Shown one piece after another: positions 1 to 18,071 of a stretch of 19,129 nucleotides of DNA. Made by a program: the position numbers and the translations under genes. Numbering within the stretch: the first letter of the stretch is position 1; the number at the start of each line of letters is the position of its first letter. The notes below the pieces were generated by a model that saw only the letters and a program-made list of their open reading frames with translations, did no database searches and had not been told where the DNA came from. The DNA comes from a virus, in UHGV virus genome UHGV-0124847. One strand, written 5' to 3'.

Positions 1-49
1 TACCAGATGTGTACCAAACCATTATTTTTGAGCGTACCAAATATTATTT

Positions 50-1400: not shown

Positions 1401-1410
1401 CTTAATTCTC

Positions 1411-2738: not shown

Positions 2739-2741
2739 GTG

Positions 2742-2891: not shown

Positions 2892-2892
2892 A

Positions 2893-3591
2893 TCACTCTC
2901 CTTTGATGCGAATGCCAGCGGCGCGTGGCACATTAACTTCCACGATGCGCACAGTTGGTTTGTACATCTCAATCGCTGTCAGCCAGTCAGCGCCAGTCAT
3001 GCGCTTTTCTGCATCGCCATTAGTCCACTTAACCGGTACACCAATAGCCTTCATCGCGATTTCTATTTCCCCGGCAATGGCGCTTTTTCCGCAACCAGTA
3101 AAACCAGAAACAACGACAAGAACTTCACCTTTGGCTGGTTTTATTTCCCGTGCTTCCAGTTCAGCAATACGCTTACTCCCATCCGAGATAACACCTTCGT
3201 AATACTCGCGTTGCTCGTTGAGTTTTGATTTTGCTTCCTCAAGCTCAACACGCAGTTTCCCTACCGTTAGCGCAATATCCTCGTTCTCCTGGTCGCGGCG
3301 TTTGATGTATTGCTGGTTTCTTTCCCGTTCATCCAGCAGCGTCAGCACAGTAGCCGGACTGGCTGCGGCGATGAATTCAGCATTGGCCTGCTGTTCCATT
3401 TGGAAATCTTCATCGAAACCGCTTTCAGGATGCGCTCCTTCAATTCTGCAAATGGGAATATATCCAGCAGCCTCGCGATGAATTAGGGCATCATCACCAT
3501 CAAATCGGCTCTCTCCATATTCGAGCGACCACTCACCACACGTTGCTTTCTCTGCCTTGGCACGCAGTGCCTGATAGTCAATCTTGTTCAT
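2893..3591 (-). CDS. Ead/Ea22-like phage protein
   Basis: 232-aa ORF with a central coiled-coil (LTVGKLRVELEEAKSKLNEQREYYE) and a C-terminal P-loop-like GFTGCGKS. Position and architecture are typical of Ead/Ea22 family proteins of lambdoid phages. Confidence 0.6.
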   Translation of the reverse strand: MNKIDYQALRAKAEKATCGEWSLEYGESRFDGDDALIHREAAGYIPICRIEGAHPESGFDEDFQMEQQANAEFIAAASPATVLTLLDERERNQQYIKRRDQENEDIALTVGKLRVELEEAKSKLNEQREYYEGVISDGSKRIAELEAREIKPAKGEVLVVVSGFTGCGKSAIAGEIEIAMKAIGVPVKWTNGDAEKRMTGADWLTAIEMYKPTVRIVEVNVPRAAGIRIKGE

Positions 3592-3592
3592 G

Positions 3593-3892
3593 TCACATCA
3601 CCCTGAATCCGTTGCATTTACGTAAGAAATCGCAGATATAGCCCTTCATTTTTTCATGCCAATCTCGATCATTCCCATTGCACCAACCATCAGGTGGAGT
3701 CCAGTTTTCTATCAGAGCAGCCATTTTCTTTGCTTTCGCCGGAGTAGCTGTTGCGGTATCGCAGTAATGACGAGTGTTAACCAACGCATCCATACCATCG
3801 ATATCAAGTACGCAAAACCATGTGTGATTCGGCATTTCAACAGATGGTATTTGTTGCCCACGTCGACGTTTATCAATAAGACATACAGTCAT
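3593..3892 (-). CDS. Hypothetical phage protein (99 aa)
   Basis: ORF tightly packed with neighbours (2-nt gap downstream, 4-nt overlap upstream), same strand as the operon. Confidence 0.5.
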   Translation of the reverse strand: MTVCLIDKRRRGQQIPSVEMPNHTWFCVLDIDGMDALVNTRHYCDTATATPAKAKKMAALIENWTPPDGWCNGNDRDWHEKMKGYICDFLRKCNGFRVM

Positions 3893-4092
3893 GGTTCCAC
3901 CTTCTCTATTTGCTTAAGACCGTCTCTCACTGCATTAAGTACGCGTTCCAGATACTGGTATTTCGGGTTTGGTGCCGTTGGCCAGTCGGCATACCACGGA
4001 TCATCACCAAAGAGATTCAGCAGTTTGTTACCGACACCGAAACAACAGCAGCTTTCTTTTACGTCATCGGCGTTTTCCGCCTCGTCCCACAT
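3889..4092 (-). CDS. Hypothetical small protein (67 aa)
   Basis: ORF in operon orientation; start overlaps the 3' end of the upstream ORF. Confidence 0.45.
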   Translation of the reverse strand: MWDEAENADDVKESCCCFGVGNKLLNLFGDDPWYADWPTAPNPKYQYLERVLNAVRDGLKQIEKVEP

Positions 4093-4432
4093 TTCTCGAG
4101 CCTGTACCGCGTCGATTTCTCTCTCTTCGTAACTTTATGATTTCTGACTTCACGAAAAGCAGATTTGCATCGTTGTCATCGTCGACCGTGCTTCGCAGTT
4201 GAGGGTCGAAATAGCCGATTAGATACTCGTTGCTGACCCGCTTAATGAACGTCTGCACATCATCACCGCCCATAGCAAACCAAGCCGCAGTCCACGCTTT
4301 TCCGTAGCAGGTGATGGTGATTCTTCCCTTACCAGGTTCGTAGTTTTCAATCATCACTCGAACCGGATCTAGTCGCTCTGCACCGGTTATAACGAATGAC
4401 AACACATCAATCTTTTCAACCGTTACACTCAC
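4064..4432 (-). CDS. Hypothetical phage protein (122 aa; C-terminal 20 aa possibly out of frame)
   Basis: ORF in operon orientation with a 4-nt overlap to the upstream gene. The basic tail (RRERNRRGTGSRNVGRGGKRR) is unlike the rest and overlaps the next ORF. Confidence 0.45.
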   Translation of the reverse strand: MSVTVEKIDVLSFVITGAERLDPVRVMIENYEPGKGRITITCYGKAWTAAWFAMGGDDVQTFIKRVSNEYLIGYFDPQLRSTVDDDNDANLLFVKSEIIKLRRERNRRGTGSRNVGRGGKRR

Positions 4433-4917
4433 TGGTTGCCTCCTTTGCGAAGCTGGTCGGCGAACAAACGTACACCAGACGCTTCACTGCGTAGAAACTT
4501 AACGGCATCATCAAAACCACCTCGTTCTGCGTCGTCTGCTCCGTTGTCGAGGTTATCTGCGTACATCTCTACCCCCTGCGCCCGTACTTCAGCCAGGAAA
4601 GCATCAGTGGTTGGCGTTTCAGGTATCTGTCTCCTCATCCGTTCTATTGCATGATTGAACCCGAAGTCTTCCGCGAGAGATACGTCATCCATATTGTCAT
4701 TGTCATCCTCAATATCCCGTGATTCTGGAATTGCAGACTTTATTCCCGCATTCTCCGCTGCCAGCGCCGCGCACTTGGCCTCCGCTTCAGCAAATTTACG
4801 CACCAGATATTCAGCGTTTGTTTCGTTAACCTTTAAATCACTTGGGATGCATTTACCTTTCAGAAATCCATCCATCTCAATTAGTGTCATTTGTTTCATT
4901 TCTTCCCACTCCGCCAC
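4429..4917 (-). CDS. Hypothetical acidic phage protein (162 aa)
   Basis: ORF in operon orientation, strongly acidic (D/E-rich), in the ea region. Confidence 0.5.
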
Positions 4918-5093
4918 ATCGCATTCAGATATTTGTTTTGATTCACTGATGGAAAAGAATTTCTCTTAAGCAATTCCTCTCTCGATGGCATTGGCTTTAC
5001 GCGCTGGCGAATAATCATTTCTGCCGGAAGAATGCCGGGATTGTATGCAAGTCCTCTCATGGTAAATTCCTCAGTCATTACTGATAGCGCCAT
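4896..5093 (-). CDS. Hypothetical small protein (about 66 aa from the internal Met)
   Basis: Track ORF 4896..5210 overlaps ORF 5071..5385 in another frame. The internal Met ([10 protein letters not shown]) gives a short overlap consistent with operon packing. Confidence 0.3.
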
Positions 5094-5385
5094 AGCGTGA
5101 GCGGTAATTACGCAGGCGCGGGTCAATTTCAGGGAAGTGGGTATATGTGGCTTTGCGGAATGGTCGGATTGATGTCTGGTAAATTCGCTCGCGTTCTTCT
5201 TTCTCTGCAAGCCATATACAGTGGCGAAATTCCTTTTCCTTTTTCGTTTCCTGCGGTAGAGACATTATCCGATCGTAGTTTTTTCTGAATTTATCCAGCA
5301 CCTCCGATACGGAATTGCCGGAACAGCGGCGCGGGTCATCCGCACCATACAGAGGCGCTGGCATAATGGAATCCTTATTTTGCAA
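5071..5385 (-). CDS. Hypothetical phage protein (104 aa)
   Basis: ORF immediately downstream of the SSB-like gene (2-nt gap), same strand. Confidence 0.5.
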
Positions 5386-5387
5386 AT

Positions 5388-5771
5388 CTAGAAGGGAATT
5401 GAATCGTCGTATTCAGGATGATTTTGATGATTGCTACTTTGCTGCTGTTGGCTGTTTCCTGAAGTTGCAAATCCAATCTTTGCATTCAGTAATTCAAGAT
5501 TGATTGATTGACCATTTTGCCCCTGATAAACATCAACTCTGATGTTTTCTCCGGTAATTTCTACAATTCCACCTTCAACAAGAACACTACGGTAGTAATC
5601 CGCTTGCGCTCCCGGCTTGGCAAATACAACGGCGCTGTAGTTTGTCCATTCTTTCTTTTTTGTCTGGCGATCGTAATACTGAACGCCAGCACGGATGTTG
5701 AATCCGATATTTTCCCCGGCCTGAAACTCTCTTACGGGCTTGTTTAGTCTTACAGTAATCGAATGTGCCAT
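5388..5771 (-). CDS. SSB-like single-strand DNA-binding protein with acidic C-terminal tail
   Basis: 127-aa ORF directly downstream of erf. Gln/Ser-rich linker then a C-terminal ...PEYDDSIPF, resembling the DDDIPF tail of bacterial SSB. The N-terminal OB-fold assignment is inferred. Confidence 0.55.
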   Translation of the reverse strand: MAHSITVRLNKPVREFQAGENIGFNIRAGVQYYDRQTKKKEWTNYSAVVFAKPGAQADYYRSVLVEGGIVEITGENIRVDVYQGQNGQSINLELLNAKIGFATSGNSQQQQSSNHQNHPEYDDSIPF

Positions 5772-6376
5772 TAAGCAGCCGCTCCTTCTAATTCATTTCG
5801 TCTGATGTTGTAAACGTCCTGCGCTTTGTGCTGCTCCGGTGTGCCTTCGAGCATCTTCCACGCTTTGGCGAACGCCTGTTTAAGCTCTTCCACGTTGTTT
5901 TTCTGCATTGCTGCGTCAGTGAATGCTTTTAGAACCTGTTCAGGTGTAGGTGATGGTTTTGATTGCTTTGCTGCTGCGTTCTGCTGATGTTTATGCTCGT
6001 CTGTATCTGCATCTTTCGCATCATCAATGCCGAATAAACCATTGAGGCAATACTTGCGTGCATAAGAGCTTGTAGCTCCCGTAACTTGTGCAGAATCCAT
6101 TCCCTTCTTGCTTTCTTCCTCTCGTGCAAGAGCGGTTGCCGTATGACTGTTTTCGCCATCGGTAATAGTTGCCGTGGCTTTCACGTAATACCGATCACCA
6201 ATCAACACAACTTCATCGCTGATTGATAAAAACAGGCCATTCAGTAACGGCTTAACACCCTCAAGAATGTCTTCGCAGCTTCTGTATTTATATTTGCCGA
6301 ATGAGTTGTATTGATTCTTTGGCGCGTTCAGATTCTCCTGAATAGCTGCCAGTCTTGCGTAAAATTCTTTGCTCAT
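5771..6376 (-). CDS. erf: Erf-family single-strand annealing recombinase
   Basis: The N-terminal region (MSKEFYARLAAIQENLNAPKNQYNSFGKYKYRSCEDILEGVKP...) matches the P22 Erf family. The track ORF begins at an upstream TTG (6406); the ATG at 6376 is preferred because the upstream 56-aa ORF ends at 6387. Confidence 0.85.
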   Translation of the reverse strand: MSKEFYARLAAIQENLNAPKNQYNSFGKYKYRSCEDILEGVKPLLNGLFLSISDEVVLIGDRYYVKATATITDGENSHTATALAREEESKKGMDSAQVTGATSSYARKYCLNGLFGIDDAKDADTDEHKHQQNAAAKQSKPSPTPEQVLKAFTDAAMQKNNVEELKQAFAKAWKMLEGTPEQHKAQDVYNIRRNELEGAAA

Positions 6377-6386
6377 ATGATTGTTC

Positions 6387-6557
6387 TCAGAATGGACATG
6401 GCCCAAGGAAATAACGCTGATTTAATACTTCGACTCGGGACAAGTTAAGGCATACCCGCATTCCTTCGCGGTCGCCATTATGGCGATACCAGAGAGCTTT
6501 CTGCGTGTACATGCGTCTCTGTAACTTGCTCTCCTTCACTGTGGTTGCAAGTGACAT
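6387..6557 (-). CDS. Hypothetical small protein (56 aa, MSLATTVKESKLQRRMYTQKALWYRHNGDREGMRVCLNLSRVEVLNQRYFLGPCPF)
   Basis: Hand-translated. Strong AAGGAG Shine-Dalgarno 6 nt upstream; in-frame stop just upstream of the ATG; lies between the kil-like gene and erf. Confidence 0.45.
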   Translation of the reverse strand: MSLATTVKESKLQRRMYTQKALWYRHNGDREGMRVCLNLSRVEVLNQRYFLGPCPF

Positions 6558-6632
6558 GAATATCTCCTTCGTTACCGATTAAATCTTTCATCTGACGAAT
6601 GAATTCTTCGTCTGACCAGTTATCTGTAAAAC

Positions 6633-6785
6633 TCATTTCCTGCGATACCACGGAAGGTTGATAGCTGATTTCATCGCTTTATTTGCTTCAAGCCACATTT
6701 TTGAATCACCAATAAATCTGGCTATTACTGCTTTGTTCTGTGCAGCACGAAGCATCTGGTGATTGATGGCTATTTCATTGCGCAT
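6633..6785 (-). CDS. kil: Kil-like small protein (50 aa)
   Basis: Hand-translated ORF (MRNEIAINHQMLRAAQNKAVIARFIGDSKMWLEANKAMKSAINLPWYRRK) immediately downstream of cIII, as in lambda. The IAxFIGDxKM motif resembles my recollection of lambda Kil; not verified. Confidence 0.45.
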   Translation of the reverse strand: MRNEIAINHQMLRAAQNKAVIARFIGDSKMWLEANKAMKSAINLPWYRRK

Positions 6786-6901
6786 AATAAGACCTCAACT
6801 CTTTTCCATCCGTCACGTAATTTACGGGTGATTCGTTCAAGTAAAGATTCATTTAGTTGGAAGGCACCCATGCGAGCGCCTCCCGCGATTGCGTAAATCA
6901 T
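6770..6901 (-). CDS. cIII: CIII-like protein (protease-inhibitor regulator of CII stability)
   Basis: Hand-translated 43-aa ORF (MIYAIAGGARMGAFQLNESLLERITRKLRDGWKRVEVLLCAMK). The core ESLLERITRKLRDGWKR matches the conserved lambda CIII region ESLLDRITRKLRDGWKR. Confidence 0.8.
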   Translation of the reverse strand: MIYAIAGGARMGAFQLNESLLERITRKLRDGWKRVEVLLCAMK

Positions 6902-6925
6902 GGGTGGTTCCTTATGTTGGTTTTA

Positions 6926-7894
6926 TTAGTAGGTTATTTTTGTTGCGAATACTTCGCCTTTTACGATGGCTGTTATGATATTTTTAGCAACATCTTCTGA
7001 TGCACCAACCTTGATAAGGTCAGTAAGTATTTTGTTATTTACTTCTTTCCGGTGAGCTTTATCCTTTGCTCTACGCTCTTCTTCGTCCTTGATTCTTTTT
7101 TCTTCTGCTATTCTGGCTTGCTCTTTTGCTTCAGCCTCGCGACGGATTCGTTCAGCCTCCTCCTGTGCTTTTCTGCGTTCTGCTTCAATTGCCGCCTGCT
7201 TTTCTCTTTCAGCTCGTTCTGCTGCCTCTTTTGCTTCGCGCTGTGCTCGTTGCTCGGCTTCAATGCGTTCACGCTCTGCACGTTCCGCTGCGGCCTTAGC
7301 TTCTGCTTCTCGCCTTGCTGCTGCTTCAATTTCGGCTTTTGCCTTTGCTTCGGCTTCTGCTCTGGCTTTCTCTTCAGCTTCTCTTTTTAAGCGTTCTTCA
7401 TGCTCTCGCTTTTCCTGCTCCGCTTTGAGTCTTGCCTCTTCTCTTTGGCGGTCAAATTCGCGATCCATCAAAATCGCTATTTCATGGTCAGACTCAATTT
7501 GCTTTGCGAGAGCTTCAGCTGCTGCCTTAGCTTCTTCTTCGGCTTTAATCCGTGCCTGTTCCTCCTCATAATCAGTAAGAGGCTGGCGCGCCTTGGCTTT
7601 CAGTTCATCAAGGCGATCGCGCACTGTCTTGCGGTTGGCATCAATTAGCTTTGGAATTTCCTTCAGTTCAGCAACAAGGTCTTTGCCAAGACCATCGAGA
7701 TATGTTTTCGTCTGCGCAACTTTATACGCCAGAGAAGCGATCTCCTTTCTGCCCTTTGCCGTTGTGATATCAGGCACAAAGGACATAACTTCACGTTCAA
7801 CCTTTTGAAGGATTTCTTCAATCTGGTCGGCAGACTGAAATACAGTCATTGCATTTGCTTTTTCAATAACAACTAAATCTGTTACTTCACTCAT
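6926..7894 (-). CDS. Phage coiled-coil protein with a long E/A/K/R-rich low-complexity central region
   Basis: 322-aa ORF with a GGAGG Shine-Dalgarno upstream. Structured N- and C-terminal regions flank about 150 aa of near-periodic EAKAAAERAERE-type sequence, which is visibly periodic at nucleotide level. Confidence 0.7.
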   Translation of the reverse strand: MSEVTDLVVIEKANAMTVFQSADQIEEILQKVEREVMSFVPDITTAKGRKEIASLAYKVAQTKTYLDGLGKDLVAELKEIPKLIDANRKTVRDRLDELKAKARQPLTDYEEEQARIKAEEEAKAAAEALAKQIESDHEIAILMDREFDRQREEARLKAEQEKREHEERLKREAEEKARAEAEAKAKAEIEAAARREAEAKAAAERAERERIEAEQRAQREAKEAAERAEREKQAAIEAERRKAQEEAERIRREAEAKEQARIAEEKRIKDEEERRAKDKAHRKEVNNKILTDLIKVGASEDVAKNIITAIVKGEVFATKITY

Positions 7895-7906
7895 ATATCC
7901 TCCGTC

Positions 7907-7932
7907 AAAAAATTGCCCTCACACTGGAGGGC
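7907..7932 (-). terminator. Intrinsic terminator (minus strand), tL-like
   Basis: GCCCTC-cagtgt-GAGGGC hairpin followed on the minus strand by AATTTTTTG, 13 nt upstream of the coiled-coil gene start. Confidence 0.5.
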
Positions 7933-8025
7933 AAAGAAGATTTCCAATAATCAGAACAAGTCGGCTCCTGTTTAGTTACGAGCGACATTGCTCACATAGC
8001 AGACTCGCAAATCTGCTATAGGTGC

Positions 8026-8184
8026 TTATTCGCATCGCATGACAACATCAAATTTTTCGAGATTACTTTGTCGCAACAATCCCTCTTCTACGCGGTCAGC
8101 TTTTCTATAATTATCAAATTCGAAATGTTTAATTACTTCTTTCGTTTCTCGCTCTATAACTTCAACGATGTATTTCTTATTCAT
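8026..8184 (-). CDS. Hypothetical small protein (52 aa, MNKKYIVEVIERETKEVIKHFEFDNYRKADRVEEGLLRQSNLEKFDVVMRCE)
   Basis: Hand-translated. Its ATG overlaps the stop of the upstream ORF (TAATG); same strand. Confidence 0.4.
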   Translation of the reverse strand: MNKKYIVEVIERETKEVIKHFEFDNYRKADRVEEGLLRQSNLEKFDVVMRCE

Positions 8185-8453
8185 TACTCATCACCTATGG
8201 CTTTTTTGATAGCTTCGCGAGCCTTATTAACAGCTCCATACCATTCTGGATATGTTGTCGTTGTTCTATTTTCGGATTGCTTAAGTAATAACTGAAGTGC
8301 TTCAAGTAAATCCGGTGCAGCCATAGCTAATCTTCCATTTGCTACGGCCTCTTCTGTTTCTTTACCGGATAGGGCCATTCCCGGGTGTGAAAATAAAATT
8401 AAGCCTGCAAAATTGGCTTCTCGCCAATTTTTCCTAGTACCTTTAAATTCCAT
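8184..8453 (-). CDS. Hypothetical phage protein (89 aa)
   Basis: ORF in the early-left operon downstream of N, preceded by a terminator hairpin. Confidence 0.5.
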   Translation of the reverse strand: MEFKGTRKNWREANFAGLILFSHPGMALSGKETEEAVANGRLAMAAPDLLEALQLLLKQSENRTTTTYPEWYGAVNKAREAIKKAIGDE

Positions 8454-8472
8454 GTTAGCCTCTGTTGTTTAT

Positions 8473-8506
8473 GCCAAAAATAAAGGCCACCATCAGGCAG
8501 CCTTTT
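8473..8506 (-). terminator. Intrinsic terminator (minus strand)
   Basis: Minus-strand hairpin AAAGGCUGCC-UGAU-GGUGGCCUUU (two G.U wobbles) followed by AUUUUUGG; lies between two small ORFs. Confidence 0.5.
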
Positions 8507-8744
8507 TGTAAATGTTGCAGGTATCAAGTAAGTAATTAGATGGAGCGCCATAAATTATGAATTCATCGTTTGTCGGGTCCATCTCCATCTCTTGGCCTAT
8601 TGCCATTCTTGCGTCAGTGTCATCAGAGGCGAAGCATAAAACAGCCCACGCACCCATTGTTTTAAAAAGAACTGCAATTGGCTGTGGTTTTACTGAATTT
8701 GCGTTAGCGCGAAAATCATAAATCGCACTTTCATGAAATTCCAT
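8493..8744 (-). CDS. Hypothetical phage protein (83 aa)
   Basis: First ORF downstream of N on the same strand (8-nt gap). Confidence 0.5.
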   Translation of the reverse strand: MEFHESAIYDFRANANSVKPQPIAVLFKTMGAWAVLCFASDDTDARMAIGQEMEMDPTNDEFIIYGAPSNYLLDTCNIYKKAA

Positions 8745-8752
8745 ATATCACC

Positions 8753-9052
8753 TCAAATAAGTGGTTTGCTGCCTAATTTCATTTTCTGGCGACCAACACA
8801 AGTCACACCCATTTCACTGCGTGGCTTGCGGTAGTAAATACGATTCTGTTTACTCTCGACTTCTTCTGTCTTCTTGCAGCGAAGGCTTCCGAGTGATGCT
8901 GCTTTATCTGCTCTGACGCAACCAGAGAGCTTTAGCGCAATCTTTCGCGCCAGTCGCTGCTCTTGCATTGCCTGTTCACGTTGAGCCTGTCTGCGTGCTC
9001 TGCGGCGATTTCTGGCGTTATCGTCAGCCAGATATGTAATGACTACTGCCAT
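8753..9052 (-). CDS. N: N-type transcription antitermination protein
   Basis: 99-aa ORF with an N-terminal arginine-rich motif (NARNRRRARRQAQREQ). C-terminus (YYRKPRSEMGVTCVGRQKMKLGSKPLI) parallels the lambda N C-terminus (WYSKPGERGITCSGRQKIKGKSIPLI). GGAGG Shine-Dalgarno; nutL upstream. Confidence 0.85.
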   Translation of the reverse strand: MAVVITYLADDNARNRRRARRQAQREQAMQEQRLARKIALKLSGCVRADKAASLGSLRCKKTEEVESKQNRIYYRKPRSEMGVTCVGRQKMKLGSKPLI

Positions 9053-9159
9053 GTTGACCTCCGATGATTGACTTTGGCGGTGACGCGCCGGGTGCTTATC
9101 TTCCGGTTGCTGTCGTGCAGCTGCACTTCACGTCACCCCAAAGCCAACTACTCTTTGGT

Positions 9160-9200
9160 TCCCGCATTTCGGCGGGACAATCCCATCAATGTTAAAGAGC
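9160..9200 (-). promoter_or_regulatory. nutL (boxA GCTCTTTAAC plus boxB hairpin)
   Basis: Minus-strand read: GCTCTTTAACA, a 13-nt spacer, then the hairpin TCCCGC-CGAAAU-GCGGGA. The same boxA and boxB core recur on the plus strand after cro (nutR). Confidence 0.7.
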
Positions 9201-9246
9201 CTGCCAATCTGTTCCGTTTGGCTACCAGCGTCCTGCTGATGGCTAA

Positions 9247-9333
9247 AGAATACTGTAGGTATTTTATTGTGTAAATACCCAAGGTATTTATTTTTGGTGA
9301 AATAATGATAAGCAAATGAATACAAAGGATATT
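9247..9333 (-). promoter_or_regulatory. pL promoter with OL operator sites
   Basis: Minus strand: -35 TTTACA (plus coords 9270..9275), 17-bp spacer, -10 TATTCT (9247..9252). Operator-like dyads AATAC-N5-GTATT at 9249..9263 and 9274..9288, and a degenerate one at 9319..9333. Confidence 0.55.
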
Positions 9334-9419
9334 TATTTTTTCGGTGTCTGCTTGTTCAGTGCTTTTTATGCGGGATATGTGAAGTGGATCCCGATAGCTA
9401 TTGCTGCCGGGATTATGAG

Positions 9420-9809
9420 TTAGTCAGCGAAGGTTAAGACGAGAATTACCTTAATGATGTCTGCTACAACAGACACGGCCATAGATAAACCAAAGACGAT
9501 CCAAGCCATAGAGATGTCTTCACTACCATCGTATAGAGTTCCGTAATCACTGGTGTAAGGCGTAAATGTCGCGCCTTGATACAACAGGTATAAGCTTGAA
9601 CCATAGAGGATAAATGCAGATATCCCTTGTATTGCTATGATCACTAGAATCATGAAACGAGCTGATCTATGCGCCCAAGCCTGGCTTATTTTTTCTGATA
9701 GAGATTTCGCAATAAAAGCATGCGCTAAGCCGTAAATTGTCGAGATTGCCAACATCCCAAAAAAGCTTGCTATAGCGGTTCCAACCATAATCGCCCCTTG
9801 CGTGATCAA
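9420..9809 (-). CDS. Small integral membrane protein (129 aa, three predicted TM helices) co-transcribed with cI
   Basis: ORF start overlaps the cI stop (ATGA-type overlap). Three long hydrophobic segments. Occupies the position of rexA/rexB in lambda; no similarity to RexB in my reading. Confidence 0.65.
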   Translation of the reverse strand: MITQGAIMVGTAIASFFGMLAISTIYGLAHAFIAKSLSEKISQAWAHRSARFMILVIIAIQGISAFILYGSSLYLLYQGATFTPYTSDYGTLYDGSEDISMAWIVFGLSMAVSVVADIIKVILVLTFAD

Positions 9810-10522
9810 ACCAGCCTTAGTTTTGTCTCAATTGCAACGCCTATAATCTTGCAGTTTCCATTGATTGGCACGAGAGGCCATGCAGGATTAAGTCCCTTGA
9901 GGTATTTATTTCCGCCGTCGATTATCAGCTTCTTGAATGTTGCTTCGTTAGAGTCAGAAAGTTTTGCTATGACCAAGCTGCCGTTGATCGCCTCCCTTCC
10001 GGTATCGAAAAGAACGAATGTTCCCTCTGGAATGCTTAACCCAACCGGTGCCGTCATTGAATCACCTTCCACTTTAAGCCAAAACGCATTACCTTGAATA
10101 TGCGCGTCAGACTCAAGCCAAACATCTATGTCTTTAATGGTGTATGGTTCGCATGCTTCACACCACGAGCCAGCCTGGATACTGCTTAACACCGGATACC
10201 TCTTTCCTGCTCTGTATTCCCCTGCATACCTTACGTTGGCATCGCTCTTAAGGCTTTCTGCCTGTTCTGCAACCTTGGCAGCAATTGACTGGCTAAAATC
10301 AGCAATTGAGACTTGCAACAATCGTGCAAAACCAGATGCAACCTCAACGTTTAGCGCGTTTCTGCCATTAAGATAATGCCCTACCGCTCCTTGGGTGATA
10401 CCCAGTTCATCAGCGATTGAGTATTGGGTTATTCCCAATTCTTTCTTTTTTGACTCATACAAAGCCTTAAGCCGCTTAGCGTCTTCGAGCTGTTCTGTCG
10501 TCAGTGATTTTTTATTTTCCAT
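9806..10522 (-). CDS. cI: CI-type prophage repressor (HTH plus LexA-like S24 autocleavage domain)
   Basis: 238-aa ORF. N-terminal HTH (LGITQYSIADELGITQGAVGHYLNG) follows the lambda CI pattern; C-terminal S24 peptidase motifs (GDSM...FKKL). Divergent from cro across the operator region. Confidence 0.9.
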   Translation of the reverse strand: MENKKSLTTEQLEDAKRLKALYESKKKELGITQYSIADELGITQGAVGHYLNGRNALNVEVASGFARLLQVSIADFSQSIAAKVAEQAESLKSDANVRYAGEYRAGKRYPVLSSIQAGSWCEACEPYTIKDIDVWLESDAHIQGNAFWLKVEGDSMTAPVGLSIPEGTFVLFDTGREAINGSLVIAKLSDSNEATFKKLIIDGGNKYLKGLNPAWPLVPINGNCKIIGVAIETKLRLV

Positions 10523-10528
10523 AGCTTA

Positions 10529-10599
10529 ATTCTAATAGCTAAGGTACTTAAACTAAAAATACCCTGAGTATTGATTGTTTTGAATACCTGTAGTATTCT
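10529..10599. promoter_or_regulatory. OR operator region with divergent pRM and pR promoters
   Basis: Three 15-bp dyads AATAC-N5-GTATT at 10534..10548, 10558..10572 and 10583..10597 (24-25 bp centre spacing). pR: -35 TTGATT 10571..10576 and -10 TATTCT 10594..10599. pRM on minus: -10 TAGAAT (10529..10534) ending 6 nt before the cI ATG, which implies a leaderless cI mRNA. Confidence 0.6.
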
Positions 10600-10628
10600 T
10601 TATTCATGGTTAATAACGGAGAGTGCAT

Positions 10629-10823
10629 ATGATTCGAATGACACTTGCCGATTACGCCAAAATCCATGGACAGGCTAAAGCAGCCAGTGACTTTGGTGTA
10701 ATCCAGTGCGCTATCAGCAAGGCCATTCTGGCAGGCCGTAACATCATGGTTACGGTAAAGCCTGATGGCAGTGTGATTGGAGAGGAAGTTCGTCCTTTCC
10801 CAAGCAACAAGAAAAACAAATAG
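10629..10823 (+). CDS. cro: Cro repressor
   Basis: The protein parallels lambda Cro throughout ([29 protein letters not shown]...PDGSV..EEV.PFPSNKK). Start placed at the ATG 7 nt after GGAGAG; the track ORF begins two codons earlier at GTG. Confidence 0.85.
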
Positions 10824-10829
10824 TAACAC

Positions 10830-10875
10830 CGCTCTTTAACAGTCATGGTCCTCATTCCCGCCGAAATGCGGGAAT
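10830..10875 (+). promoter_or_regulatory. nutR (boxA CGCTCTTTAAC plus boxB hairpin)
   Basis: boxA directly after the cro stop; boxB is ATTCCCGC-CGAAAU-GCGGGAAT at 10854..10875. Core identical to nutL. Confidence 0.7.
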
Positions 10876-10931
10876 ACAACGCGCATAAGTTGATGCGCAT
10901 AACTTCTTATTAGTTAAGGAAATACTTACAT

Positions 10932-11210
10932 ATGCAACTTACAAGTACTCGCAAGAAAGCGAATGCAATTACAAGCAACATCATGAATCGAATTGCTGTA
11001 CGTGGTCAGCGAAAGGTTGCCGACGCGTTAGGGATTAATGAATCGCAAATTTCGCGATGGAAAGACAGCTTTATCCCAAAGATGGCCATGCTTCTGGCTG
11101 TTCTTGAATGGGGTGTTGAAGACGAGGAGTTGGCGGAACTGGCTAAGAAAGTAGCCAGAATGCTGACAAAAGAAAAAGCCCCGAAGAACGGCGAATTCTT
11201 CGAGGCCTGA
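10932..11210 (+). CDS. cII: CII transcriptional activator
   Basis: 92-aa ORF matching lambda CII across the HTH and tetramerisation region (KSQISRWK...IPK.SMLLAVLEWGV). Confidence 0.9.
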   Translation: MQLTSTRKKANAITSNIMNRIAVRGQRKVADALGINESQISRWKDSFIPKMAMLLAVLEWGVEDEELAELAKKVARMLTKEKAPKNGEFFEA

Positions 11211-11244
11211 TGTAGAAAGACTGGATCAATCCACAGGAGTAATT

Positions 11245-11406
11245 ATGACAAAACGTCGTAAGAAATACCAGGAAAAAGAAGAGATTCGACACCCTGATTC
11301 ACCTGAGGGATTAGTGGTAGCCGCAGCAAATAACAGGGCGTTCGCAGAGCGCCTTGTTGGTGTTTACAGACTAGCCAAAGCAGGAGTGAAACATGGGCGT
11401 CGTTAA
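11245..11406 (+). CDS. Hypothetical small basic protein (53 aa, [53 protein letters not shown])
   Basis: Hand-translated. AGGAG Shine-Dalgarno 5 nt upstream; its 3' end overlaps the start of the O-like gene. Confidence 0.4.
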   Translation: MTKRRKKYQEKEEIRHPDSPEGLVVAAANNRAFAERLVGVYRLAKAGVKHGRR

Positions 11407-12214
11407 GTTAGCTGATTACAGGCCTCAACTGGAGGTCGTGGAGCATCGCGTGGCAGATACCGAAGATGGTTTCATGCGCGTTGCTAACGAGATTACCGAC
11501 GGTCTGCTGATGGCTGATTTAACCGTCCGGCAGTTGAAGGTGATGCTCGCTATCATGCGCAAGACATACGGATTCAATAAGCCGATGGATCGACTCACAA
11601 ACACGCAGATAGCAGCCATGACAGGTATTCATCACACTCATGTTTGCGCTGCCAAGCGCCAGCTTATTGAGCGTAAATTCCTCATTGCTGATGGCGTGAA
11701 AATCGGAGTGAACAAGGTGGTTTCGCAGTGGATTAGCCAGGACAGCTTAACATTAGCTAAAACAGCTAATAAAACATTAGCCAAGTCGGCTAATGGGTAT
11801 AAGCCAAGTCAGCTAAACACAAAAGACAATATACAAAAGACAATAAATACAAATACCCCCTTACCCCCTAACGGGGGTGGCGATGGGCAGGTTAAACCTG
11901 AACGTCGCAAGGCGGAACGAATCGACTACGAATCCTTCCTGAACGCCTACAACACCGAAGTCGGTGACAGACTGCCACACGCTGTTGCGGTCAACGAGAA
12001 ACGCAAACGCCGCCTGAAGAAAATCATCCCGCAACTGAAAACGCCAAACGTGGACGGTTTCAGAGCGTATGTCAGGGCGTTTGTGCATCAGGCCAAGCCG
12101 TTTTACTTCGGAGACAACGACACGGGCTGGACGGCTGATTTTGATTACCTGCTGAGAGAAGACTCGTTAACGGGAGTTCGGGAAGGGAAGTTTGCAGACA
12201 GGGGGATTGCATGA
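11393..12214 (+). CDS. O: Replication initiator (phage O-like, replisome-organizer N-terminal domain)
   Basis: 273-aa ORF. N-terminal region ([55 protein letters not shown]) is typical of phage replication protein O N-terminal DNA-binding domains. The coding sequence contains an iteron array. Confidence 0.85.
11733..11880. other. Putative replication origin inside the initiator gene: dyad iterons, A-rich tract, GC palindrome
   Basis: Repeated about 17-bp dyads: TTAGCT-aaaac-AGCTAA (11753..11769), TTAGCC-aagtc-GGCTAA (11777..11793), taAGCC-aagtc-AGCTAA (11800..11816) at 23-24 bp spacing. Then an A-rich stretch (11817..11860) and CCCCCttaccccctaacGGGGG. Confidence 0.6.
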
Positions 12215-13587
12215 GACAGGATATCGAAGCGAGCGTTATCGGTGGCCTGCTGATTGGTGGATTAACTCCAACTGCCAGCGACGTTCTGGCAACGCTGGAG
12301 CCGGAAGCGTTTTCAATTCCGCTCTACAGGAAAGCCTTCGAGGTTATCCGCAAGCAGGCGAGAAACAGAAACCTAATCGATGCGCTGATGGTTGCCGAGG
12401 CGTGCGGAGAGGAGCATTTCACCTCAATCCTGATGACCAGCAAAAACTGCCCGAGTGCCGCAAACCTGAAGGGATATGCCGGAATGGTCGCGGATAACTA
12501 TCACCGCCGTCTGGTGCTGGAAATCATGGATGAAATGCGTGAACCAATTCAGAGCGGAACCATCGACGTATCGAGTCAGGCGATGGATGAACTTGTAAAG
12601 CGTCTTTCAGTCATCAGAAAGCCACGTGACGAGGTAAAACCTGTACGGTTAGGGGAAATCATCACCGACTACACTGACACGCTTGACAGGCGTCTGAGGA
12701 ACGGAGAAGAGTCAGATACCCTGAAGACCGGAATCGAAGAACTTGATGCCATCACCGGAGGGATGAACGCAGAAGACCTGGTGATTATCGCCGCTCGTCC
12801 TGGTATGGGGAAAACCGAACTGGCGCTGAAGATTGCCGAAGGTGTGGCAAGCCGCGTTATTCCTGGTTCTGACGTCCGGCGCGGGGTATTGATTTTCTCA
12901 ATGGAAATGAGCGCATTGCAGATTGCAGAGCGAAGCATTGCCAACGCCGGGAGGATGTCGGTTAGCGTACTGCGAAATCCTGCATCGATGGATGACGAGG
13001 GCTGGGCACGTGTTGCTAACGGCATGAGTCAGCTTGCAGATTTGGATGTATGGGTAGTCGATGCTTCGCGGTTATCGGTCGAAGAAATACGCTCAATCGC
13101 AGAACGGCATAAGCAGGAAAATCCAAACCTGTCACTCATCATGGCGGATTATCTTGGCCTGATTGAGAAGCCGAAAGCAGACCGCAACGACCTCGCAATT
13201 GCTCACATCTCCAGAAGCCTGAAGGCGATGGCGAAAGACCTGAAAACACCGGTTATCTCCCTGAGTCAGCTTTCGCGCGATGTTGAGAAGCGACCAAACA
13301 AACGCCCGACAAACGCAGATTTGCGTGATTCAGGAAGCATTGAACAGGACGCAGACTCAATCATCATGCTCTATCGGGAAGCGGTATATGATGAGAACAG
13401 TAGCGCCGCGCCATTTGCTGAAATCATCGTGACGAAAAACCGTTTTGGCTCGCTTGGTACAGTTTACCAGCGGTTCTGCAACGGACACTTTGTTGCATGT
13501 GACCAGGATGAAGCCAGACAGATTTGCACAGCATCAAATGCACCTGCTGCGCGTGGCAGACGATATGCACAAGGGGCTGACGTATGA
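12211..13587 (+). CDS. Replicative DNA helicase, DnaB family
   Basis: 458-aa ORF with Walker A ([15 protein letters not shown]), Walker B-like ([10 protein letters not shown]) and a DnaB C-terminal region ([17 protein letters not shown]...[20 protein letters not shown]). Start overlaps the O stop. Confidence 0.9.
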
Positions 13588-13664
13588 CCATCTACATCAC
13601 TGAGCTAATAACAGGCCTGCTGGTAATCGCAGGCCTTTTTATTTGGGGGAGAGGGAAGTCATGA
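13584..13664 (+). CDS. Possible 26-aa hydrophobic micropeptide ([26 protein letters not shown])
   Basis: ATG overlaps the helicase stop (GTATGA) and its stop overlaps the ninB ATG (TCATGA). Single hydrophobic helix. The same span forms a terminator hairpin, so coding status is uncertain. Confidence 0.3.
13613..13645 (+). terminator. Intrinsic terminator-like hairpin between the helicase and ninB
   Basis: AGGCCTGC-tggtaatc-GCAGGCCT perfect 8-bp stem followed by TTTTTATTT. Confidence 0.5.
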
Positions 13665-14101
13665 AAAAACTAACCTTTGAAATTCGATCTCCAGCACATC
13701 AGAAAAACGCTATTCACGCAGTACAGCAAATTCTTCCAGACCCAACCAAACCAATCGTAGTAACCATTCAGGAACGCAACCGCAGCTTAGACCAAAACCG
13801 AAAGCTTTGGGCTTGCCTTGGTGACGTCTCTCGTCAGGTTGAATGGCATGGTCGCTGGCTGGATGCAGAAAGCTGGAAGTGTGTGTTTACCGCAGCATTA
13901 AAGCAGCAGGACGTTGTTCCTAACCTTGCCGGGAATGGCTTTGTGGTAATAGGCCAGTCAACCAGCAGGATGCGTGTAAGCGAATTTGCGGAGCTATTAG
14001 AGCTTATACAGGCATTCGGTACAGAGCGTGGCGTTAAGTGGTCAGACGAAGCGCGACTGGCTCTGGAGTGGAAAGCGAGATGGGGAGACAGGGCTGCATG
14101 A
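13661..14101 (+). CDS. ninB: NinB (Orf-family recombination mediator)
   Basis: The protein from [68 protein letters not shown] matches lambda NinB as I recall it. The track ORF starts at an upstream TTG; the ATG at 13661 is preferred. Confidence 0.9.
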   Translation: MKKLTFEIRSPAHQKNAIHAVQQILPDPTKPIVVTIQERNRSLDQNRKLWACLGDVSRQVEWHGRWLDAESWKCVFTAALKQQDVVPNLAGNGFVVIGQSTSRMRVSEFAELLELIQAFGTERGVKWSDEARLALEWKARWGDRAA

Positions 14102-14970
14102 TAAATGTCGTTAGTTTCTCCGGTGGCAGGACGTCAGCATATTTGCTCTGGCTAATGGAGCAAAAGCGTCGGGCAGGTAAAGACGTGCATTACGTTTTCA
14201 TGGATACAGGTTGTGAACATCCAATGACATATCGGTTTGTCAGGGAAGTTGTGAAGTTCTGGGATATACCGCTCACCGTATTGCAGGTTGATATCAACCC
14301 GGAGCTTGGACAGCCAAATGGTTATACGGTATGGGAACCAAAGGATATTCAGACGCGAATGCCTGTTCTGAAGCCATTTATCGATATGGTAAAGAAATAT
14401 GGCACTCCATACGTCGGCGGCGCGTTCTGCACTGACAGATTAAAACTCGTTCCCTTCACCAAATACTGTAATGACCATTTCGGGCGAGGGAATTACACCA
14501 CGTGGATTGGCATCAGAGCTGATGAACCGAAGCGGCTAAAGCCAAAGCCTGGAATCAGATATCTTGCTGAACTGTCAGACTTTGAGAAGGAAGATATCCT
14601 CGCATGGTGGAAGCAACAACCATTCGATTTGCAAATACCGGAACATCTCGGTAACTGCATATTCTGCATTAAAAAATCAACGCAAAAAATCGGACTTGCC
14701 TGCAAAGATGAGGAGGGATTGCAGCGTGTTTTTAATGAGGTCATCACGGGATCCCATGTGCGTGACGGACATCGGGAAACGCCAAAGGAGATTATGTACC
14801 GAGGAAGAATGTCGCTGGACGGTATCGCGAAAATGTATTCAGAAAATGATTATCAAGCCCTGTATCAGGACATGGTACGAGCTAAAAGATTCGATACCGG
14901 CTCTTGTTCTGAGTCATGCGAAATATTTGGAGGGCAGCTTGATTTCGACTTCGGGAGGGAAGCTGCATGA
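14098..14970 (+). CDS. ninC: NinC-like protein, PAPS-reductase/PP-loop ATPase superfamily
   Basis: 290 aa from the ATG overlapping the ninB stop. N-terminal PP-loop motif ([12 protein letters not shown]) typical of PAPS reductase-like enzymes. Position after ninB and the 290-aa length match lambda ninC. Confidence 0.75.
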
Positions 14971-15218
14971 TGCGATGTTATCGGTGCGGTGAATGCAAAG
15001 AAGATAACCGCTTCCGACCAAATCAACCTTACTGGAATCGATGGTGTCTCCGGTGTGAAAGAACACCAACAGGGGTGTTACCACTACCGCAGGAAAAGGA
15101 GGACGTGTGGCGAGACAGCGACGAAGTTTCACCGACATCATCTGTGAAAACTGCAAATACCTTCCAACGAAACGCTCCAGAAATAAACGCAAGCCAATCC
15201 CAAAAGAATCTGACGTAA
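14967..15218 (+). CDS. NinD-like small Cys-rich protein (true 3' end uncertain)
   Basis: ORF starts on the ninC stop (ATGATG). CxxC pairs (CYRCGEC, CLRC) suggest a zinc ribbon. The last 113 nt overlap ninE in another frame, so the real protein may be shorter. Confidence 0.45.
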
Positions 15219-15283
15219 AAACCTTCAACTACACGGCTCACCTGTGGGATATCCGGTGGCTAAGACATCGTGCGAGGAAATGA
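15107..15283 (+). CDS. ninE: NinE-like protein
   Basis: Hand-translated 58-aa ORF from GTG after AAGGAGG ([58 protein letters not shown]); resembles lambda NinE as I recall it. Stop overlaps the next start (ATGA). Confidence 0.65.
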
Positions 15284-15627
15284 CAATGGATTATTCACAG
15301 TTAAGTGATTTTGAAATTAACAGAATGGTAGGAGACATAATTTTTAAAGGACTTTGGGCATGTAAACCGGAAACGTCAGGGAATAACACCAACAAATGGT
15401 ATTACGGAAATGCTGATACAACTTTTGAGCCATTAAATCATTTGCCTGACTACTGCAATGATCCGAGCGCTTCATGGCCGATTATTGAGAAATACAGGAT
15501 TTCTATCTTAGACCAGTTAACTGAATGGTGTGTGGATGCAAAAGGCGTAAGCCCAATATTTGATACCAGACCTCTCCGCGCCGCCATGATTGTCTTTCTC
15601 CTGATGCAGGAGGCCAATAATGCTTAG
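15280..15627 (+). CDS. Hypothetical nin-region protein (115 aa from MTMDYSQ)
   Basis: ORF with ATGA overlap to the ninE stop. The track ORF extends upstream to a GTG at 15244, but that start lies inside ninE. Confidence 0.55.
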
Positions 15628-15796
15628 CCCATCCCAATCCCTTCAATACCAGAAAGAAAGCGTCGAGCGGGCTTTAACGTGCGCTAACTGCGGTCAGAAG
15701 CTGCATGTGCTGGAAGTTCACATGTGTGAGCACTGCTGCGCAGAACTGATGAGCGATCCGAATAGCTCAATGCACGAGGAAGAAGACGATGAATGA
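15620..15796 (+). CDS. ninF: NinF-like small Cys-rich protein
   Basis: Hand-translated 58-aa ORF ([58 protein letters not shown]) with two CxxC motifs and an acidic tail; resembles lambda NinF as I recall it. Confidence 0.6.
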
Positions 15797-16511
15797 GTTA
15801 ATAAATGGCAATGCCATCAAAATGACAAGCATTGAAATCGCTGAGTTGGTTGGTAAGCGTCATGACAATGTGAAACGTACCATCGAAACGCTGGCTAAAA
15901 ATGGTGTTATCCGGCTTCCTCAAATTGAGGTTTCCGAAAGAATCAATAACTTAGGGTTCAATGTTCAGTACGAGCATTACGTTTTCGAAGGCGAACAAGG
16001 TAAGCGAGACAGTATTGTCGTTGTTGCCCAGTTGTCGCCGGAATTCACCGCTCGCCTTGTTGACCGCTGGCGAGAGCTTGAAGAAGCTGCGGTTAATATC
16101 CCCAAAACGCTACCAGAAGCGTTGCGCCTTGCTGCTGATCTTGCTGAGCAGAAAATGCAACTGGAAAACCAGCTCGCAATTGCCGCACCTAAAGTTGAGT
16201 TTGCCGATCGCGTTGGCGAGGCCAGCGGAATTTTGATTGGAAACTTTGCAAAGGTTGTCGGTATTGGTCCAAACAAACTGTTTGCGTGGATGCGCGATCA
16301 CAAAATCCTTATTGCTTCAGGTTCCCGGCGCAATGTGCCAATGCAGGAATATATGGATCGCGGCTATTTCACAGTGAAAGAAACAGCGGTCAACACAAAT
16401 CACGGAATACAGATATCGTTCACCACAAAAATCACCGGGCGTGGTCAACAGTGGCTGACCAGAAAGCTGCTCGATAACGGAATGCTGAAAGTAACAGGTG
16501 AGGCTGCTTAA
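15789..16511 (+). CDS. Phage antirepressor-like regulator (Rha-type N-terminal domain plus KilA-C/ANT-like C-terminal domain)
   Basis: 240-aa ORF. N-terminus (IKMTSIEIAELVGKRHDNVKRTIETL) fits Rha/ORF6N-type phage regulatory domains; the C-terminal half resembles KilA-C antirepressor domains. Inserted between ninF and the ybcO-like gene. Confidence 0.7.
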   Translation: MNELINGNAIKMTSIEIAELVGKRHDNVKRTIETLAKNGVIRLPQIEVSERINNLGFNVQYEHYVFEGEQGKRDSIVVVAQLSPEFTARLVDRWRELEEAAVNIPKTLPEALRLAADLAEQKMQLENQLAIAAPKVEFADRVGEASGILIGNFAKVVGIGPNKLFAWMRDHKILIASGSRRNVPMQEYMDRGYFTVKETAVNTNHGIQISFTTKITGRGQQWLTRKLLDNGMLKVTGEAA

Positions 16512-16801
16512 TGGCTAATCTACGCAAAGAAGCACGCGGCAGAGAATGCCAGGTACGTATTTACGGCGTATGCAATGGCAACCCTGAAACTACAGTTCTG
16601 GCACATTATCGGATGGCTGGAATTTGCGGAACGGGAATGAAGCCTGACGACCTGATCGGCGCATGGGCTTGTAGCGCGTGTCACGATGAAATCGACCGAC
16701 GCACCCATAATCTCGACAACAAAGACGCCAGACTTTACCACCTCGAAGGCGTGATCAGGACGCAGGCGATACTGCTGAAGGAGGGGAAGATTAAGTCATG
16801 A
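16511..16801 (+). CDS. YbcO-like (DUF1364) putative zinc-binding nuclease
   Basis: 96-aa ORF with Cys/His clusters (CQVRIYGVCNG, CSACHDEID), immediately upstream of rusA as in the DLP12 prophage arrangement. Confidence 0.7.
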   Translation: MANLRKEARGRECQVRIYGVCNGNPETTVLAHYRMAGICGTGMKPDDLIGAWACSACHDEIDRRTHNLDNKDARLYHLEGVIRTQAILLKEGKIKS

Positions 16802-17160
16802 ACGAATATCAGTTTGTGCTTCCATACCCGCCGTCGGTGAACACCTACTGGCGAAGACGGGGAAGCCAATACTACATCAGCGATAAAGGCCAGAAATACC
16901 GAAAAGACGTTCAGCAAATCATCCGCCAACTCAAGTTAGACATTTTCACCAAATCACGACTCCGCATCAAAGTCATCGCAGACGTTCCAGACTCCCGCCG
17001 CCGCGACCTCGACAACATCCTGAAAGGTTTACTCGATTCCCTTATCCACGCCGGATTTGCGGAAGACGACGAGCAATTCGATGACATTCGCGTAATTCGT
17101 GGTGTGAAAGTACCAGGCGGACGGCTTGGAATAAAAATCACCGAACTGGAGAACGCATGA
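16798..17160 (+). CDS. rusA: RusA Holliday-junction resolvase
   Basis: 120-aa ORF with the conserved RusA core (DVPDSRRRDLDNILKGLLDSLIHAGF...DD). Confidence 0.9.
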   Translation: MNEYQFVLPYPPSVNTYWRRRGSQYYISDKGQKYRKDVQQIIRQLKLDIFTKSRLRIKVIADVPDSRRRDLDNILKGLLDSLIHAGFAEDDEQFDDIRVIRGVKVPGGRLGIKITELENA

Positions 17161-17965: not shown

Positions 17966-18007
17966 CAGCATGATTGCCACGGATGGCAACATATTAACGG
18001 CATGATA

Positions 18008-18036: not shown

Positions 18037-18071
18037 TGACTCAACGATGGATAAATGCACTCGTTAAATAA

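Follow-up and report, generated by a model that had tools for sequence, protein, structure and literature searches.

The HK620-type control region

The DNA considered here is the whole 19,129-nt stretch of the UHGV virus genome UHGV-0124847 (the window in what follows), of which we read positions 8800-11300 and listed the open reading frames. We are highly confident that positions 9160-10875 are the early control region of a lambdoid prophage, and that this region consists of two separable modules: an immunity cassette of the HK620 type and an N-nut module of the type found in HK620 and CUS-3. The genes and sites of the region and of the adjoining N gene are the following, in the order of their coordinates.

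8753-9052, minus strand: gene of the N antiterminator, 99 amino acids; PHROG 271 'anti-termination protein N-like', E = 2.6e-36
9160-9177, minus strand: nutL boxB, UCCCGC-CGAAAU-GCGGGA (RNA UCCCGCCGAAAUGCGGGA), -10.5 kcal/mol, z = -2.95; lies within HK620 nutL and is identical to it
9191-9200, minus strand: nutL boxA, GCTCTTTAAC, followed by a 13-nt spacer (9178-9190)
9247-9275, minus strand: promoter pL, -35 TTTACA (9270-9275), 17-nt spacer, -10 TATTCT (9247-9252); 9/12 in the promoter scan and identical to HK620 pL
9248-9264: OL1, 17-bp operator GAATACTGTAGGTATTT, overlapping the -10 hexamer and spacer of pL; from the dyad, the HK620 map and a position weight matrix (PWM)
9273-9289: OL2, 17-bp operator AAATACCCAAGGTATTT, abutting or overlapping the -35 hexamer of pL; from the dyad, the HK620 map and the PWM
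9318-9334: probable OL3, GAATACAAAGGATATTT, 9/10 dyad positions, centre 45 bp from that of OL2; from the PWM and the 1-mismatch scan
9420-9788, minus strand: gene of a small, HkaS-like membrane protein, at the place downstream of cI that rexAB takes up in lambda; from the HK620 hkaS annotation
9806-10522, minus strand: cI repressor gene, 238 amino acids; HTH_3 (E = 8e-10) and Peptidase_S24 (E = 5e-24)
10529-10557, minus strand: promoter pRM, -10 TAGAAT (10529-10534), 17-nt spacer, -35-like TTTAGT (10552-10557) abutting OR2
10533-10549: OR3, degenerate operator TAATAGCTAAGGTACTT, 8/10 dyad positions; from the HK620 map, the PWM and relatives
10557-10573: OR2, AAATACCCTGAGTATTG; from the dyad, the HK620 map and the PWM
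10571-10599, plus strand: promoter pR, -35 TTGATT (10571-10576), 17-nt spacer, -10 TATTCT (10594-10599); from the HK620 annotation
10582-10598: OR1, GAATACCTGTAGTATTC, with perfect 6-bp arms, overlapping the -10 hexamer of pR; from the dyad and the HK620 map
10629-10823, plus strand: cro, 64 amino acids, lambda Cro family; Pfam PF09048 (E = 3.6e-26) and HK620 annotation
10831-10840, plus strand: nutR boxA, GCTCTTTAAC, beginning 7 nt beyond the stop codon of cro; a 15-nt spacer (10841-10855) comes next
10856-10873, plus strand: nutR boxB, UCCCGC-CGAAAU-GCGGGA, stem extendable to 8 bp, -12.5 kcal/mol, z = -3.65

At the nucleotide level, positions 9040-10930 (1891 bp) are 98.9-99.2% identical, with 100% coverage, to HK620 (98.9%), mEpX2 (99.1%), HF4s, HZ41, HK630, HK140 and other phages, and 146 of 5426 complete E. 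coli genomes carry this region at a coverage of at least 80%. The HK620 record of 2001 (AF335538) annotates nutL, pL, OL1-3, tIMM, OR1-3, pR, nutR, tR1, pRE and a cII binding site. When these features were mapped onto the window at an offset of +7539, OL1, OL2, OR1, OR2, OR3, pL, nutL, nutR, pRE and the cII site were base-identical and pR differed at two bases, both outside the hexamers, the annotated OL3 being the exception to base identity. The GenBank record of mEpX2 annotates both boxA sequences too. The HK620 genome was reportedly described by Clark, Inwood, Cloutier and Dhillon (J Mol Biol, 2001). Comparison with the catalogued immunity types, which the earlier note on this DNA had proposed, places the region in a type that is already annotated, that of HK620, on the sequence of cI, cro and the operators (OL1, OL2 and OR1-3 are identical 17-mers). 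For mEpX2, an immunity group distinct from those of lambda, HK022 and phi80 is reported (PMC3442831). The control region is real and ordinary, already known as HK620-type immunity with nut sites of the HK620/CUS-3 type, and what we add is a better candidate for OL3, the conservation of the operators across genera and a census of N proteins against nut sites.

Operators, promoters and the cI transcript

The cI product (a helix-turn-helix and an S24 autocleavage domain) and Cro are encoded divergently, as in a lambda-type switch, and the operators have the lambda layout, with three OR sites over pR and pRM and a second set over pL. The exact dyad AATAC-N5-GTATT (AATACNNNNNGTATT) occurs four times in the window, at 9249 and 9274 in OL and at 10558 and 10583 in OR, where 0.01 occurrences are expected and none of 200 shuffles reaches four. 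Allowing one mismatch adds a fifth dyad at 9319, the only 1-mismatch site in the window (0.52 expected). With up to two mismatches the 10 dyads found are at chance level (7.6 expected), and they include OR3 (AATAGCTAAGGTACT at 10534, 8/10 positions), which is credible only because of its position, its PWM rank and its conservation in relatives. The PWM was built from the four exact operator sites and scanned over the whole window; its best sites outside the training set are 9318-9334 (12.0 bits) and OR3 at 10533-10549 (9.4 bits, rank 6), and the remainder score 6.7 bits or less. We also considered the 2-mismatch dyads within hkaS (9578 and 9619) as extra operators and rejected them, as they belong to that chance-level class and score at most 4.9 bits. 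The earlier note had counted the dyad three times in OR, which is right for the two exact copies (OR1 and OR2) but not for the degenerate third. Its count of at least two in OL was borne out by the exact copies, with the 9/10 candidate in addition, and so was the overlap that it described with the promoter elements, given that OL1 and OR1 overlap the -10 sequence TATTCT while OL2 and OR2 touch the -35 hexamers.

A search in distant mode with OR and cro as the query yielded relatives that are ~68-72% identical in DNA, namely Hafnia phage Pocitis76, Serratia phage OS31 and Erwinia phage EhrS_49. All three keep the AATAC and GTATT arms at the three OR positions, with variable central 5 bp and flanks, and Pocitis76 has an identical copy of the OR1 17-mer. 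In OL, EhrS_49 has three exact sites, OS31 has two (one exact and one with one mismatch) and Pocitis76 has at least one. The cI recognition segment ITQGAVGHYLNGRNALN of the window is kept in these relatives (beginning ISQ in Pocitis76), and their Cro helix is the same as that of the window or similar (GVHQTAISKAV in EhrS_49). By contrast, the lambda and CUS-3 loci have no AATAC-N5-GTATT operators, the locus in the lambda record having none even at one mismatch or fewer, and in the window there is no operator of the lambda type (TATCACCGC or the lambda consensus), with recognition helices that differ from those of lambda. This is a phylogenetic footprint in which the operator arms track the recognition helices, and it upholds the claim that the operator set is not that of lambda.

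Regarding the promoters, the promoter scan found pL and neither pR nor pRM, which have no more than 8/12 consensus matches; these two were assigned because of the HK620 annotation and the lambda-like layout. On the minus strand, exactly 6 nt (TAAGCT) separate the pRM -10 hexamer TAGAAT from the cI ATG downstream of it, and no Shine-Dalgarno sequence is visible in those 6 nt. The same arrangement of -10 hexamer, 6 nt and ATG is common to six phages, the window, HK620, lambda (TAGATT-TAACGT-ATG), Pocitis76, EhrS_49 and OS31, the last of these on condition that its cI starts at MESKK. In lambda, the cI mRNA made from pRM starts at the AUG and is leaderless. A leaderless cI mRNA from pRM would thus be a well founded, if unproven, reading, because the layout is the same as that of lambda pRM, and the spacing of about 6 nt given in the earlier note proved to be exact. 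In OS31 (1504-2262), the cI start given in the annotation lengthens the protein by 16 residues and crosses all three OR operators; this start is probably wrong, as the conserved TAGAAT, 6 nt and ATG point to the internal start at MESKK. We also folded the stretch annotated as tIMM (9308-9338) and do not accept it as an intrinsic terminator, having found no convincing hairpin (-0.6 kcal/mol).

The nut sites and the N protein

Two nut sites flank the immunity cassette. On the minus strand, nutL (9160-9200) reads GCTCTTTAAC-ATTGATGGGATTG-TCCCGCCGAAATGCGGGA, and on the plus strand nutR (10831-10873) reads GCTCTTTAAC-AGTCATGGTCCTCAT-TCCCGCCGAAATGCGGGA. The pattern GCTCTTTAAC-N(8-20)-TCCCGCCGAAATGCGGGA occurs twice in the window, once per strand, against 0.00 expected from shuffles, and a boxA with its boxB lies downstream of pL before N and again downstream of cro, which is the layout of nut sites. 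The core of boxA, GCTCTTTAACA, is identical to the boxA of the E. coli rrn leaders (7 copies per E. coli genome, by our count) and to that of phage 21, and the lambda boxA deviates from this rrn-type sequence. Both boxB sequences fold with a 6-nt loop, on a stem of 6 bp that reaches 8 bp in nutR. No U-tract follows either hairpin and the terminator scan calls neither of them, so the boxB of nutR is not an intrinsic terminator. Over the whole window, an Rfam scan returned no family at the gathering threshold.

The N protein is a mosaic, with, at the N terminus, an arginine-rich motif (ARM) of the HK620 type, DNARNRRRARRQAQREQ, joined to a C-terminal part of the phage 21 type. It is 98% identical over its full length to the N of CUS-3, residues 1-64 are 95% identical to HK620 N, and residues 37-99 are 93.7% identical to the N of lambda imm21. 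Its PHROG 271 match, its identity to the imm21 N and the alignment of its ARM place it among the lambdoid N proteins. The same ARM is found on three different C-termini, of the phage 21 type (the window and CUS-3), the H-19B type (HK620 and mEp213) and the P22 type (mEpX2), with recombination junctions near residues 30-64.

To relate this ARM to its target, we took a census of 80 IMG/VR contigs encoding it. Both nutL and nutR, with an invariant boxB, were present in 77 of the 80; two of the exceptions lack flanking DNA and the third (L046), which is mEp213-like, has this N but no nut sites to match it. The repressors between the matched nut sites are of at least five kinds, lambda cI included. 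The specificities of antitermination and of immunity thus belong to separate modules that assort independently, since the same ARM-nut pair surrounds at least five repressors and CUS-3 differs in cI and cro while its nut sites are identical, and selection would hold the two nut sites to a match with the ARM. Accordingly, the statement of the earlier note that the region defines an immunity and an antitermination specificity that are not those of lambda is supported for each of the two specificities, but they do not form one package. As for its other claims on this module, nutL and nutR indeed share both boxA (GCTCTTTAAC) and the boxB core (TCCCGC-CGAAAT-GCGGGA), and the link that it drew between the 6-nt loop and a divergent ARM fits the census. 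The common 13-nt spacer was correct for nutL but not for nutR, where it is 15 nt, and the 6-nt loop does differ from the 5-nt loop of lambda but is not unusual, as the nutL and nutR of phage 21 have 6-nt loops (CUAACC) as well.

Several observations made in passing concern these elements. In the IMG/VR contigs L021 and L038, a cI of lambda immunity lies between an HK620-type nutL and nutR, so that they combine lambda immunity with a non-lambda antitermination specificity. Phage mEp213 (L004) has two tandem N genes (2016-2348 and 3501-3773), the first of the lambda type behind a lambda-type nutL and the second of the HK620 type with a broken nutL, in which what is left of boxB, with mutations in the stem (CCCTCCGAAATGCGGG), is found ~250 bp upstream of the point at which homology resumes. 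Furthermore, in the N leader of the window, between the boxB of nutL and the ribosome-binding site of N, there is a long and stable hairpin with a stem of ~19 bp (9067-9148, minus strand). The 126-nt leader stretch folds at -46.6 kcal/mol (z = -3.45), the position of the hairpin recalls that of the RNase III-processed hairpin in the lambda N leader, and, with 99% conservation, the segment is also present upstream of the second of the two mEp213 N genes.

Alternative explanations and known systems

The reading of the region as an HK620-type immunity cassette within an HK620/CUS-3-type N-nut module has to be weighed against several points. The features of the HK620 record are labelled putative and were annotated from sequence, pR has 8/12 consensus matches and fell below the threshold of the promoter scan, and the match of N to the Pfam N_peptide model (19.5 bits) is below the cut-off of 27.9 bits. 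The boxB sequence is invariant in all 154 copies from the 77 contigs, without compensatory changes in the stem; because all of the copies are identical, neither a covariation test nor a covariance model was possible, and the stem is supported by conservation and thermodynamics only. In the literature that we searched, the papers on the operators or nut sites of HK620 and mEpX2 were genome comparisons only, and for this immunity and nut type they yielded neither footprints nor mapped transcripts nor measurements of N-boxB binding. Moreover, OL3 is ambiguous, as the GenBank position does not fit the motif and the better match has an unusual 45-bp spacing. The invariance of the hairpins bears on the idea that they are terminators, or elements of RNA processing or stability flanking the immunity region, instead of N-binding boxB sites, as it leaves no covariation to draw on; the strength of the two folds and the annotation in HK620 of tR1 immediately after nutR speak for the same idea. 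Yet neither hairpin has a U-tract or is called by the terminator scan, a boxA with the same sequence as that of phage 21 and the rrn leaders stands 13-15 nt ahead of each, as in the phage 21 nut sites, and their places, one just downstream of pL and the other right after cro, are the canonical ones for nut sites. They also co-occur with this ARM in 77 of the 77 contigs in which the flanks are available and intact, whatever the immunity cassette between them, and in mEp213 the N with the same ARM that sits behind a lambda-type N and nutL has its own boxB degraded. We consider this explanation very improbable.

We give slightly less credence still to the possibility that the dyads are bound by another factor, either a host protein or a different phage regulator, or that they are AT-rich promoter repeats without an operator role. 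The motif is indeed AT-rich and overlaps the promoter hexamers (TATTCT holds part of an arm), so that its recurrence could partly reflect promoter sequence, and OR3 taken alone is at chance level. Against this stand the excess of exact dyads over expectation, the lambda-like arrangement, in which three sites at intervals of 24-25 bp lie between the divergent genes cI and cro, and the 17-bp length and central position, which match those of the lambda operators in a system whose cI and Cro are lambda homologs. In addition, the arms are kept around variable centers in ~70%-identical phages that share the cI and Cro helices, and are absent where other repressors accompany similar promoters. A more serious contender, although still the less probable side of the question, is that OL has only two functional operators or that its third is at the GenBank position, 9295-9311, and not at 9318-9334. 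The distance between OL2 and OL3 is 20-21 bp in lambda and in EhrS_49, and the HK620 annotators put OL3 at such a distance; the 45-bp spacing is atypical, and a single 1-mismatch site in 19 kb is unsurprising by itself. However, the annotated position scores -26.7 bits (rank 13027), whereas 9318-9334, which is 23 bp to the left of it and inside the annotated tIMM stretch, is the best non-training site, at less than 50 bp from OL2, and is identical in HK620. The spacings of 25, 24 and 45 bp also leave a similar fraction of a helical turn (0.3-0.4), which would put these sites on the same face of the DNA. On the match to the motif, OL3 is more likely to lie at 9318-9334 than at the annotated 9295-9311.

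Sequences, positions, statistics, homologies, conservation and co-occurrence are what we determined for the control region read as these two modules; binding, the points at which transcripts start and antitermination as such are modeled on the lambda, phage 21 and P22 paradigms. According to this model, the lambda-like cI and the lambda-family Cro would bind 17-bp operators with the consensus AAATACC-N3-GGTATTT, three at OR (with a consensus match that decreases from OR1 to OR2 to OR3) and two or three at OL. When OR1/OR2 and OL1/OL2 are occupied, pR and pL should be blocked, because these operators cover the -10 hexamers and touch the -35 hexamers, and cI at OR2 would adjoin the -35 hexamer of pRM, as in lambda, this promoter giving a cI mRNA predicted to start at the A of the AUG. 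The transcripts from pL and pR would each carry the rrn-like boxA, a presumptive NusB/NusE site, and then, 13 or 15 nt further on, the identical boxB hairpin, to which the N-terminal ARM of N may bind while its phage-21-like C-terminal part engages NusA and RNA polymerase, yielding a polymerase that resists termination. By analogy with the solved phage 21 complex, which has a C-C-closed UAAC fold, the loop of boxB would most simply be a GNRA tetraloop, GAAA, closed by a non-canonical C.U pair. It is an evenly balanced matter for us whether the HK620/CUS-3-type ARM and UCCCGC-CGAAAU-GCGGGA make a fourth N-boxB pair, orthogonal to the lambda, P22 and phage 21 pairs, a lambda-like ARM without the stacking tryptophan then reading a canonical GAAA tetraloop that is closed by the C.U mismatch and extrudes no base; whether the AAATACC half-site with the Cro helix QCAISK is a data point for the recognition code of lambda Cro; and whether OL3 is misplaced in the GenBank records of this type.

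As a discovery, the region matters very little, and nothing in it should surprise a phage specialist. For the prophage, it should set which superinfecting phages are excluded (HK620, mEpX2 and others with this type of immunity) and which N proteins are able to work on its transcripts. The operator set is a natural specificity variant of the lambda cI/Cro fold, and the comparison, with one N-ARM/nut pair traveling with at least five repressor cassettes, is a clean illustration of lambdoid mosaicism. The ARM-boxB pair could also serve as an additional orthogonal tool for tethering peptides to RNA, if its specificity were measured.

Other features of the window were noted as well. The cII gene matches Pfam PF05269. 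The HkaS-like protein is hydrophobic, of 122-129 amino acids, and matches PHROG 6534 (E = 3.6e-79; labeled as of unknown function), with no Pfam hit; its gene is a candidate exclusion or moron gene expressed in the lysogen. On the minus strand, 6926-7894 encodes a 322-amino-acid protein with a long, highly charged central repeat region rich in E, A, K and R, whose counterparts in related prophages bear the annotation 'cell envelope biogenesis protein TolA' or are called hypothetical. Coverage of the whole window by any complete E. coli genome or phage record stays below 80%, the best coverage of 1-19129 being 65% by a complete E. coli genome and 56% by a phage record. The window is a new mosaic of known lambdoid modules, which comprise the integrase side, the recombination genes, N, the HK620 immunity region, the O/P-DnaB replication genes and the nin genes. 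In the record of the Aeromonas phage AP1 (H121, MT713136), 142 bp (253518-253659) are 100% identical to the 3' end of cro of this region, near the end of a 254-kb jumbo-phage record, and the match looks like contamination or an assembly artifact in that record.

Among known systems, HK620 (and likewise mEpX2, HF4s, HK630 and HK140) has the same gene order, N - nutL - OL/pL - hkaS - cI - OR - cro - nutR - cII, with a few substitutions outside the sites. The C-terminal third of N is different, being of the phage-21/CUS-3 type in the window and of the H-19B type in HK620, and beyond this region the 19-kb window is made up of another mosaic.

Compared with lambda, the region has homologous cI and Cro (PF09048), 17-bp dyads, three per control region and 24-25 bp apart, and divergent pRM and pR with the same spacing of the pRM -10 hexamer from the ATG. 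The ARM shares A3 and the RRR-x-RR core with that of lambda N, and the loop of boxB holds GAAA, as do the lambda loops GAAAA and GAAGA. On the other hand, the operator half-site is AAATACC in the window and TATCACC in lambda, and the N-terminal domain of cI can be aligned with that of lambda except for the recognition helix, QGAVGHYLNG in the window as compared to QSGVGALFNG; for Cro, the helices are QCAISKAI and QSAINKAI, respectively. The boxA is rrn-like (UUUAAC) where lambda has CUCUUA, the loop has 6 nt where lambda has 5, the ARM has no equivalent of Trp18, and the small hkaS gene replaces rexAB.

In the architecture of its nut sites the region is close to phage 21, for whose N peptide-boxB complex Cilley and Williamson reportedly obtained a structure by nuclear magnetic resonance in 2003. 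The boxA is identical (GCUCUUUAAC), the starts of the spacers are related (AUUGAUGG as compared to AUCGACGG, and AGUCAUGG as compared to AGUUCUGG), and in both phages a stem of 6-7 bp carries a 6-nt loop that begins and ends with a pyrimidine. In lambda imm21, nutL has GCTCTTTAAC followed by TCTCAAC-CTAACC-GTTGAGA and nutR has GCTCTTTAAC followed by TCACCT-CTAACC-GGGTGA; the hexaloop is no peculiarity of the phage in the window, because imm21 has both the same boxA and a 6-nt loop. While this architecture is shared, the determinants of specificity differ, with a CUAACC loop in phage 21 and CGAAAU in the window, other stem sequences, and the ARM GTAKSRYKARRAELIAE as compared to DNARNRRRARRQAQ. 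Because of these differences in loop, stem sequence and ARM, cross-recognition between the two N/boxB systems would not be expected. A passage of PMC12550061, citing PDB 1NYB, describes the CUAACC loop in the phage 21 complex as a UMAC fold that is GNRA-like and has a non-canonical C-C closing pair.

Finally, CUS-3 (CP000711) has an N that is 98% identical over 99 residues, and the boxA, spacers and boxB of its nutL and nutR are identical to those of the window. Its immunity cassette is different, with another repressor (216 amino acids), another cro and no AATAC-N5-GTATT operators.

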